Shown piece after piece: positions 4,042 to 4,285 of a DNA stretch of 64,000 bases. Each line of letters opens with the position of its first letter. The stretch's first letter is position 1. A program made the translations under genes and the position numbers. The DNA is from Rhina ancylostomus (Eukaryota). The notes beneath the pieces are model-generated. The model made no database searches. It was given only the letters and a program-made list of their open reading frames with translations, and was not told the DNA's origin. The stretch lies in contig JARFYF010000001.1 of assembly GCA_030265395.1 (NCBI GenBank), positions 110,071,632 to 110,135,631 on the forward strand, given 5' to 3'.

Positions 4042-4285
4042 CAAGACATTCTGCAGATGCTGGAATCTGGAGCAACACACACAAGATGCTGGAGGAGCTC
4101 AGCTGGTCAGGCAGCGTCTATGGAGACAAATAAACAGTCGACATTTCGGGTCGAGACCCTTCTTCAGGACTTATGATCAGGACTGGTGATCCAGATGAAG
4201 GGTCTCATCCTGAAACATTGACTGTTTATTTCTCTCCATAGATGCTGCCTGACCTGCTGAGTTCCTCCAGCATTTTGTGCGTGTT
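4042..4285. mobile_element. Short palindromic Penelope-derived non-autonomous element with two inverted hammerhead-like motifs and a 15-bp TSD
   Basis: Arms ~4075-4166 and ~4194-4285 are reverse complements. Flanked by ttcttaaagg(c/g)taca at 4027-4041 and 4286-4300. Confidence 0.8.
4136..4171 (-). ncRNA. Minimal type-I hammerhead ribozyme motif (Penelope-associated)
   Basis: Minus strand reads AGUC-CUGAAGA-A-GGGUC(UC)GACCC-GAAA-U-GUC-GACU: stem I AGUC/GACU, core CUGANGA, stem II GGGUC/GACCC, GAAA, GUC cleavage triplet, loop-less stem III. Confidence 0.65.

Follow-up and report, generated by a model that had tools for sequence, protein, structure and literature searches.

The closest described relatives of the sequence examined here are the minimal hammerhead ribozymes (min-HHR) carried by the pseudo-LTRs (pLTRs) of metazoan Penelope-like elements (PLEs), which combine a CUGANGA core, an extra base between positions 9 and 10.1 and a G10.1-C11.1 pair with a short helix I and a loopless helix III, palindromic at 15.2-16.2 in the consensus, and which occur as dispersed single copies and as opposite-strand pairs (Cervera and De la Pena 2014, PMC4209133). 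Among the PLEs themselves, the EN+ elements of the Neptune clade possess an RT followed by a C-terminal GIY-YIG domain (EN), partial tandems and a CX2-5CxxC-type linker that marks Neptune and Nematis elements, and their insertion units comprise an adjacent inverted 5'-truncated copy and a tail of 30-40 bp that is confined to one end (Craig et al. 2021, PMC8557442). In Poseidon_Ac of Anolis carolinensis, the RT starts at two sites, ~100 and ~135 nt into the repeat, on an uncut RNA template; both strands of an AT-rich target are cut and extended, and the hammerhead lies near an AUG (Frangieh et al. 2024, PMC11167929). Finally, the animal non-LTR retrozymes, reported in one chondrichthyan genome, are head-to-tail tandem repeats that carry a type-I hammerhead in PLE-pLTR-derived non-coding units (bioRxiv 10.64898/2026.07.22.740005).

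Apart from the head-to-tail arrangement, these features recur at positions 4042-4285 of the 64-kb window (the whole stretch of DNA that was analysed) or in the family to which this locus belongs. The motif at 4136-4171 is the known minimal type-I hammerhead of PLE pLTRs, CUGAAGAA being a form found in fugu and cichlid min-HHR too (PMC4209133), and the layout of the insertion is one already published for PLEs. Several differences separate the locus from each relative. Helix II has 4 bp here and 5-8 bp in most of the min-HHR examples listed in PMC4209133, and a U-G combination replaces the palindromic 15.2/16.2 pair. Unlike Neptune units (PMC8557442), the insertion has its arms cut down to hammerhead and tail, with no coding sequence left in 4042-4285. 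Poseidon_Ac belongs to a different clade, the AUG frame of our family consensus stops after ~22 codons, and the present family is described here from its sequence. In contrast to the retrozyme tandems, 4042-4285 is a single head-to-head insertion. The file searched from the supplement of PMC4209133 names neither shark nor skate, and literature searches on PLE hammerheads in chondrichthyans, and on truncated hammerhead pairs arranged head-to-head, brought up nothing on point among the papers listed.

Read on the minus strand from 4171 to 4136, the motif consists of AGUC (4171-4168), the CUGAAGA core (C3 at 4167 to A9 at 4161), an extra A (4160), helix II with its loop (GGGU, CUCG and ACCC, 4159-4148), GAAA (4147-4144), UGUC (4143-4140) and GACU (4139-4136). 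All the catalytic nucleotides of the CUGANGA ... GAAA ... NUH pattern are present, together with a GUC site, and the cut is predicted between 4140 and 4139. The extra A after A9, to which the initial annotation had drawn attention, occupies the place between 9 and 10.1 and is a regular feature of PLE hammerheads (PMC4209133); G10.1-C11.1 corresponds to G4159-C4148, and the 4 bp of helix I (3-5 bp in min-HHR) and of the closed helix II agree with the minimal form. The 5-bp stem II of that annotation has to be abandoned, since a fifth pair would leave a 2-nt loop; the fold gives helix II 4 bp and a loop of CUCG. Its proposal that AUGU in helix III derives from ACGU by CpG decay is borne out by the family consensus, which reads ACGU; consensuses A, B, C and D all have C-G at 15.2-16.2, where this copy has U-G. 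With a descriptor of our own (CUGANGA, which one extra base may follow, at least 3 bp in helix II, GAAA, two bases, UH and at least 3 bp in helix I), 4136-4171 was the sole match in the window, and no match was obtained in any of 20 block-shuffled windows or in the reversed 1.02-Mb genome sample described below. The type-I minimal hammerhead is present as first read, and it exceeds chance expectation.

The motif stands at the 5' end of an arm in a head-to-head insertion of 244 bp, whose inverted second arm, absent from the initial annotation, holds a second, broken hammerhead on the opposite strand. The parts of the insertion and its borders are the following:

4027 to 4041, no strand: left target-site duplication, whose last 3 bases also match the end of the element's tail
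4042 to 4073, minus strand: tail of arm 1, present on this side alone, 32 nt long or 35 nt if the shared bases are counted
4074 to 4135, minus strand: pLTR part of arm 1 that follows the hammerhead, from the alignment of the arm to the consensus
4136 to 4171, minus strand: minimal type-I hammerhead with helix I of 4 bp, helix II of 4 bp, CUCG loop, full core, extra A and decayed helix III (AUGU)
4172 to 4189, no strand: junction, made of a 4-nt filler, an 11-nt re-copied hammerhead 5' edge (4176-4186) and a 3-nt filler
4190 to 4223, plus strand: second, broken hammerhead with U4A and a U-U mismatch in helix II, failing the descriptor
4190 to 4285, plus strand: arm 2, an inverted 5'-truncated pLTR copy that stops at the near family 3' end
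4286 to 4300, no strand: right target-site duplication, matching 4027-4041

The arms (4074-4169 and 4190-4285) are inverted over 96 nt and 85% complementary, and they lie between target duplications of 12-15 bp in AT-rich sequence, 4027-4041 and 4286-4300 being identical at 14 of 15 positions. On a scale that begins at the A of AGUC, arm 2 stops at +97 and arm 1 extends to about +130; the tail of arm 1 (32-35 nt) reaches the far 3' end of the family, and arm 2 has no such tail. Differences from the family A consensus amount to 10 of 131 positions in arm 1 and 8 of 96 in arm 2, where the broken hammerhead also shows C-A at 15.2/16.2 and a helix I reduced to 2 bp. The junction piece 4176-4186 retains the consensus U7, and the A7 of arm 1 therefore probably arose after insertion; CUGAAGA is in any case a common natural form of the hammerhead. 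We conclude with considerable confidence that 4042-4285 is a decayed, 5'-truncated head-to-head insertion of a Penelope-like end repeat, in which the hammerhead is an inherited passenger, most likely inactive there. Two observations at the locus count against the passenger reading. The first is the retention of every catalytic nucleotide at 4136-4171. The second is the persistence of the insertion in a related organism, whose contigs (~4% flank divergence, 44 other letters in ~1,040) enter both arms, so that the insertion predates that split; these contigs break inside the repeat, short of the hammerhead letters, and those of a second relative stop before the insertion. No RNA record was listed for the locus.

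The sample in which the family was characterized consists of 120 pieces of 10 kb each, placed at round coordinates on large contigs; it amounts to 1,021,696 non-N bases and is no formal random sample. A profile search of this sample recovered 246 fragments, of which 121 span the hammerhead, and none in the reversed control; extrapolated to the genome, the sample corresponds to ~450,000 fragments, ~220,000 hammerhead-spanning copies and ~7,000 (2,000-19,000) that pass the descriptor. The window itself contains 16 fragments. The descriptor was passed at 4 places in the sample, 3 of them with the C-G palindrome, and 4136-4171, with all its catalytic nucleotides, is among the better-kept copies. 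The Penelope-like origin suggested from the first reading is supported by the family copies that adjoin RT and GIY-YIG frames. The order EN, ~310-nt pyrimidine-rich UTR and hammerhead was found on the same strand at L032, L054, L043, L229 and L251, and RT, EN and hammerhead follow each other at L061. At L063:1-2696 (C2762), a partial tandem places the end of an EN before a hammerhead of variant form (CUGACGA, GUU site, helix II of 5 bp), after which comes an open frame of 738 aa, this RT frame being the longest uninterrupted one that was translated. A CX4CXXC linker precedes the EN at L065 and L069. The nearest named proteins (66-74%) come from Chiloscyllium and Mobula, an indication of a cartilaginous fish as host, and the Pfam scores of the genomic fragments lie under the curated cut-offs (GIY-YIG, E 0.002; RVT_1, E 1e-6). 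By its linker, which Nematis shares, rather than by a tree, the family would be classed as a Neptune-type EN+ Penelope-like element; the repeat flanking the RT and C-terminal GIY-YIG frame, the inverted 5'-truncated copy and the one-sided tail all conform to that clade. In the family consensus, an AUG within the core opens the short frame already mentioned, and in consensuses A-C a pyrimidine tract and a YAG end inside the 5' strand of helix I as a possible 3' splice site.

Other relatives were noticed in the course of this survey. The window contains a second head-to-head pair of the same superfamily at 34374-34637, with a B-type tail, U4A in both arms and a longer spacer, further head-to-head pairs near 15940-16150, 39247-39396 and 50651-50757, and, at 43597-43785, the decayed remnant of a GIY-YIG sequence from a related PLE (42% over 66 aa). 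At L233, near position 1500 (C1:120.93 Mb, minus strand), about four tandem units of ~35 nt, each a hammerhead alone with a C9-type core, resemble a very short retrozyme-like array. Two exact canonical hammerheads lie 170 bp apart on one strand at L251:1430-1630 (C7:74.62 Mb); they were considered as a natural dimer and not counted as one because a run of N separates them, and they may be an assembly duplication.

Could the copy at 4136-4171 be a working or co-opted ribozyme, cutting a host or antisense transcript alone or in trans with another copy? It has the full core, the GUC site and both stems, the minimum-energy fold of the isolated 36-mer contains the hammerhead stems, and at least 219 exact canonical-core copies exist as potential trans partners; moreover, a PLE hammerhead of Anolis cuts, although it needed protein to do so (PMC11167929). 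Against this, the replacement of C-G by U-G at 15.2/16.2 brings the predicted energy of a trans helix III to +2.6 kcal/mol for the AUGU copy versus -1.7 for the consensus, and nearest-neighbour folding of a 551-nt context puts both hammerhead stems at probability 0.0000, because the inverted arm 2 pairs with the core (4030-4300 is predicted to fold at -148.8 kcal/mol, z -14.9). The two hammerheads of the insertion lie on opposite strands, so that they share no transcript and 4136-4171 has no partner on its own strand. Single minimal hammerheads did not cleave and dimers did so only at a low level in the results given in PMC4209133, and 1 of 9 Xenopus retrozyme dimers cut (bioRxiv 10.64898/2026.07.22.740005). 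Finally, among ~220,000 hammerhead-spanning copies, some should be intact by chance. A working ribozyme at this site is for these reasons improbable, and the hammerhead is most likely inactive there, as the weakened helix III and the predicted hairpin indicate. A minus-strand transcript would produce the broken arm first; it is a point against inactivity, however, that one starting inside the junction would lack this arm and escape the hairpin. The catalytic competence envisaged in the initial annotation is accordingly predicted to be wanting in this copy in its place, and may be kept for the family consensus, which is canonical-looking and accompanied by compensatory changes.

The ends of the copies bear on the way in which such insertions arise. 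They were analysed in 117 of the 246 fragments, those of A, B or C type with a score of at least 60, the remaining 129 being set aside. The 3' ends (111 callable) cluster at +93..102 (32 copies) and +131..138 (46 copies) from the A of AGUC. Pairs in the sample are head-to-head in 35 cases, tail-to-tail in 2 and direct in 8; a long and a short tail are combined in 12 of the 16 scorable pairs, and two long tails in none. These clusters and unequal pairs fit two nicks primed at two start sites, as described in PMC11167929 and PMC8557442. Among the 5' ends (106 callable), 47 of the 75 copies that reach the 5' edge of the hammerhead stop at -2..+7, versus 2.5 expected from the downstream rate, and just 2 of 92 end at the cleavage site; the position of the ends at helix I and not at the cleavage site implies an uncut template. 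An inverted arm accompanies 21 of these 47 copies. The other 26 are solo, with unrelated flanks, and a word of at least 8 bases is shared on both sides in 6 of the 26 versus 0.8% of controls.

Part of this evidence would also suit a master copy that gave rise to the insertion as a single hairpin unit, in the manner of a non-autonomous (MITE-like or retrozyme-like) fold-back element, given that a single target duplication encloses both arms and that head-to-head pairs are as common as the 35 counted in 1.02 Mb. Such a unit is very unlikely, for the junctions vary between pairs in sequence and in offset (-11 to +92), the arms are unequal, more than half of the edge-truncated copies are solo, and no retrozyme-style tandem array is found.

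In the model we propose for the passenger insertion, the protein of the element would first nick an AT-rich site on both strands, at a spacing of 12-15 bp. Reverse transcription would then be primed on each nick, from the far internal start site on one and from the near site on the other, and both cDNAs would read through the uncut hammerhead, halt at its 5' edge and be joined with little filler, the copy having since mutated by ~8%. A transcript of either strand is predicted to fold into a 96-bp hairpin that buries the core, and the hammerhead of the source element probably cuts weakly, as a dimer or with the help of a protein. An A-to-G scar confined to one strand gave no signal in the two arms (compatible changes number 3 of 10 in arm 1 and 0 of 8 in arm 2). 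As to the pile-up at helix I, we favour the 5' end of the RNA over a block of the RT at the pyrimidine tract. The edge sequence fits both an initiator, for which the motif is YYANWYY, and a 3' splice site (pyrimidine tract and YAG). A spliced exon as the cause is disfavoured because no upstream sequence is common to the 26 solo copies (best mutual local score 20) and 19 of the 47 keep the AG. In the Penelope of D. virilis, helix I is the place where an intron ends (PMC4209133); the start is located upstream.

Covariation across the copies, whose absence the first reading had named as part of a refutation, is visible at two pairs. Groups A-C mostly have C-G as pair 1 of helix I, their second common form, C-A, being consistent with CpG decay; in group D this pair is U-A in 22 of 39 copies, and the 10.1/11.1 pair of helix II goes from G-C to A-U in 17 of 38 group D copies. 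Group D is a loosely bounded collection, and A and B include copies of a fifth subfamily. The compensatory changes amount to about two events and not many independent ones. In the genomic copies, G12 shares the decay of CpG sites in general (32 of 53 copies retain it, versus 326 of 542 CpG sites overall; Fisher p=1.0). Core sites outside CpG are slightly better preserved than the tail (392/423 versus 2118/2387, p=0.016), a third observation that counts against the passenger reading; ascertainment and the mixing of subfamilies in the tail could explain it, selection being another possibility. Apart from this slight excess, selection would have acted on the source element, with none visible on the inserted copies.

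The Rfam search suggested for the motif gave no hammerhead match at E up to 10, and neither did that of 5 loci with exact consensus motifs, so that Rfam is uninformative for this class; the MIR6020 match in the region (29.4 bits versus a gathering score of 118) reflects only the long hairpin. That the family has no ribozyme and the motif is a chance resemblance, as the silence of Rfam and a 40-nt piece folding no better than its shuffled versions (z -0.42) might suggest, is hardly credible in view of the empty descriptor controls, the compensatory changes of group D (C-G to U-A, G-C to A-U) and the presence of every feature of the published consensus.

Within the family identified as the source of the passenger hammerhead, substituted cores have been amplified as such. 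Exact copies in the genome number at least 219 for the canonical core, 70 for U4A and 60 for C at position 9 (C9), versus 0 for controls; the variant copies occur among loci L211-L250. In the sample, U4A goes with the B tail (13/28 versus 8/93, p=2e-5) and C9 with the C tail (16/18 versus 11/103, p=5e-11), and this tie of each variant to one tail indicates that both were amplified from source elements; U4A copies can follow an EN frame (L224, L229), and C9 could alternatively result from the insertion of a base ahead of an A9 that has shifted. The core-variant section of PMC3088659 names neither U4A nor C9 and cites a tolerated U4C, and no paper on either variant was found within the limited literature searched. 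We tentatively raise the possibility that the elements of this family were copied from uncut RNA starting at the first bases of helix I and that two of the subfamilies reached tens of thousands of copies with a substituted core, in which case the hammerhead would be, in vivo, a 5'-terminal structure of the template and not a required cutter.

The genomic setting was also considered, the hammerhead having been described at first as antisense to a GGA pre-mRNA. A GGA-like exon with good splice sites does lie at 51866-51966 on the plus strand (E 6e-8 to GGA1), 48 kb from the hammerhead. No VHS exon was found in the window or 50 kb on either side, no upstream GGA exon with paralogue exons against 164 kb, and no other exon within 50 kb beyond the window; as ~15% of the sampled genome is N, these missing GGA exons are no proof of absence. 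The antisense relation thus keeps one exon in its favour and remains unproven. It leaves the verdict of inactivity unchanged, because the plus-strand hammerhead is broken and either strand forms the hairpin. A 72-codon open frame of protein-like composition, without Pfam match, was also noted at 7171-7386 on the plus strand.

In conclusion, the copy at 4136-4171 matters little in itself: relics that look intact are estimated at a few thousand, out of several hundred thousand fragments, and this is one of them. As a natural dataset, its family is useful for the open question of what role the PLE hammerheads play: the truncation points argue against cleaved RNA as the template, the lopsided pairs fit two-strand priming from two start sites, and the core-variant subfamilies allow a side-by-side assay. 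If these subfamilies did spread with a substituted core, they would provide a natural test of the purpose of PLE hammerheads.
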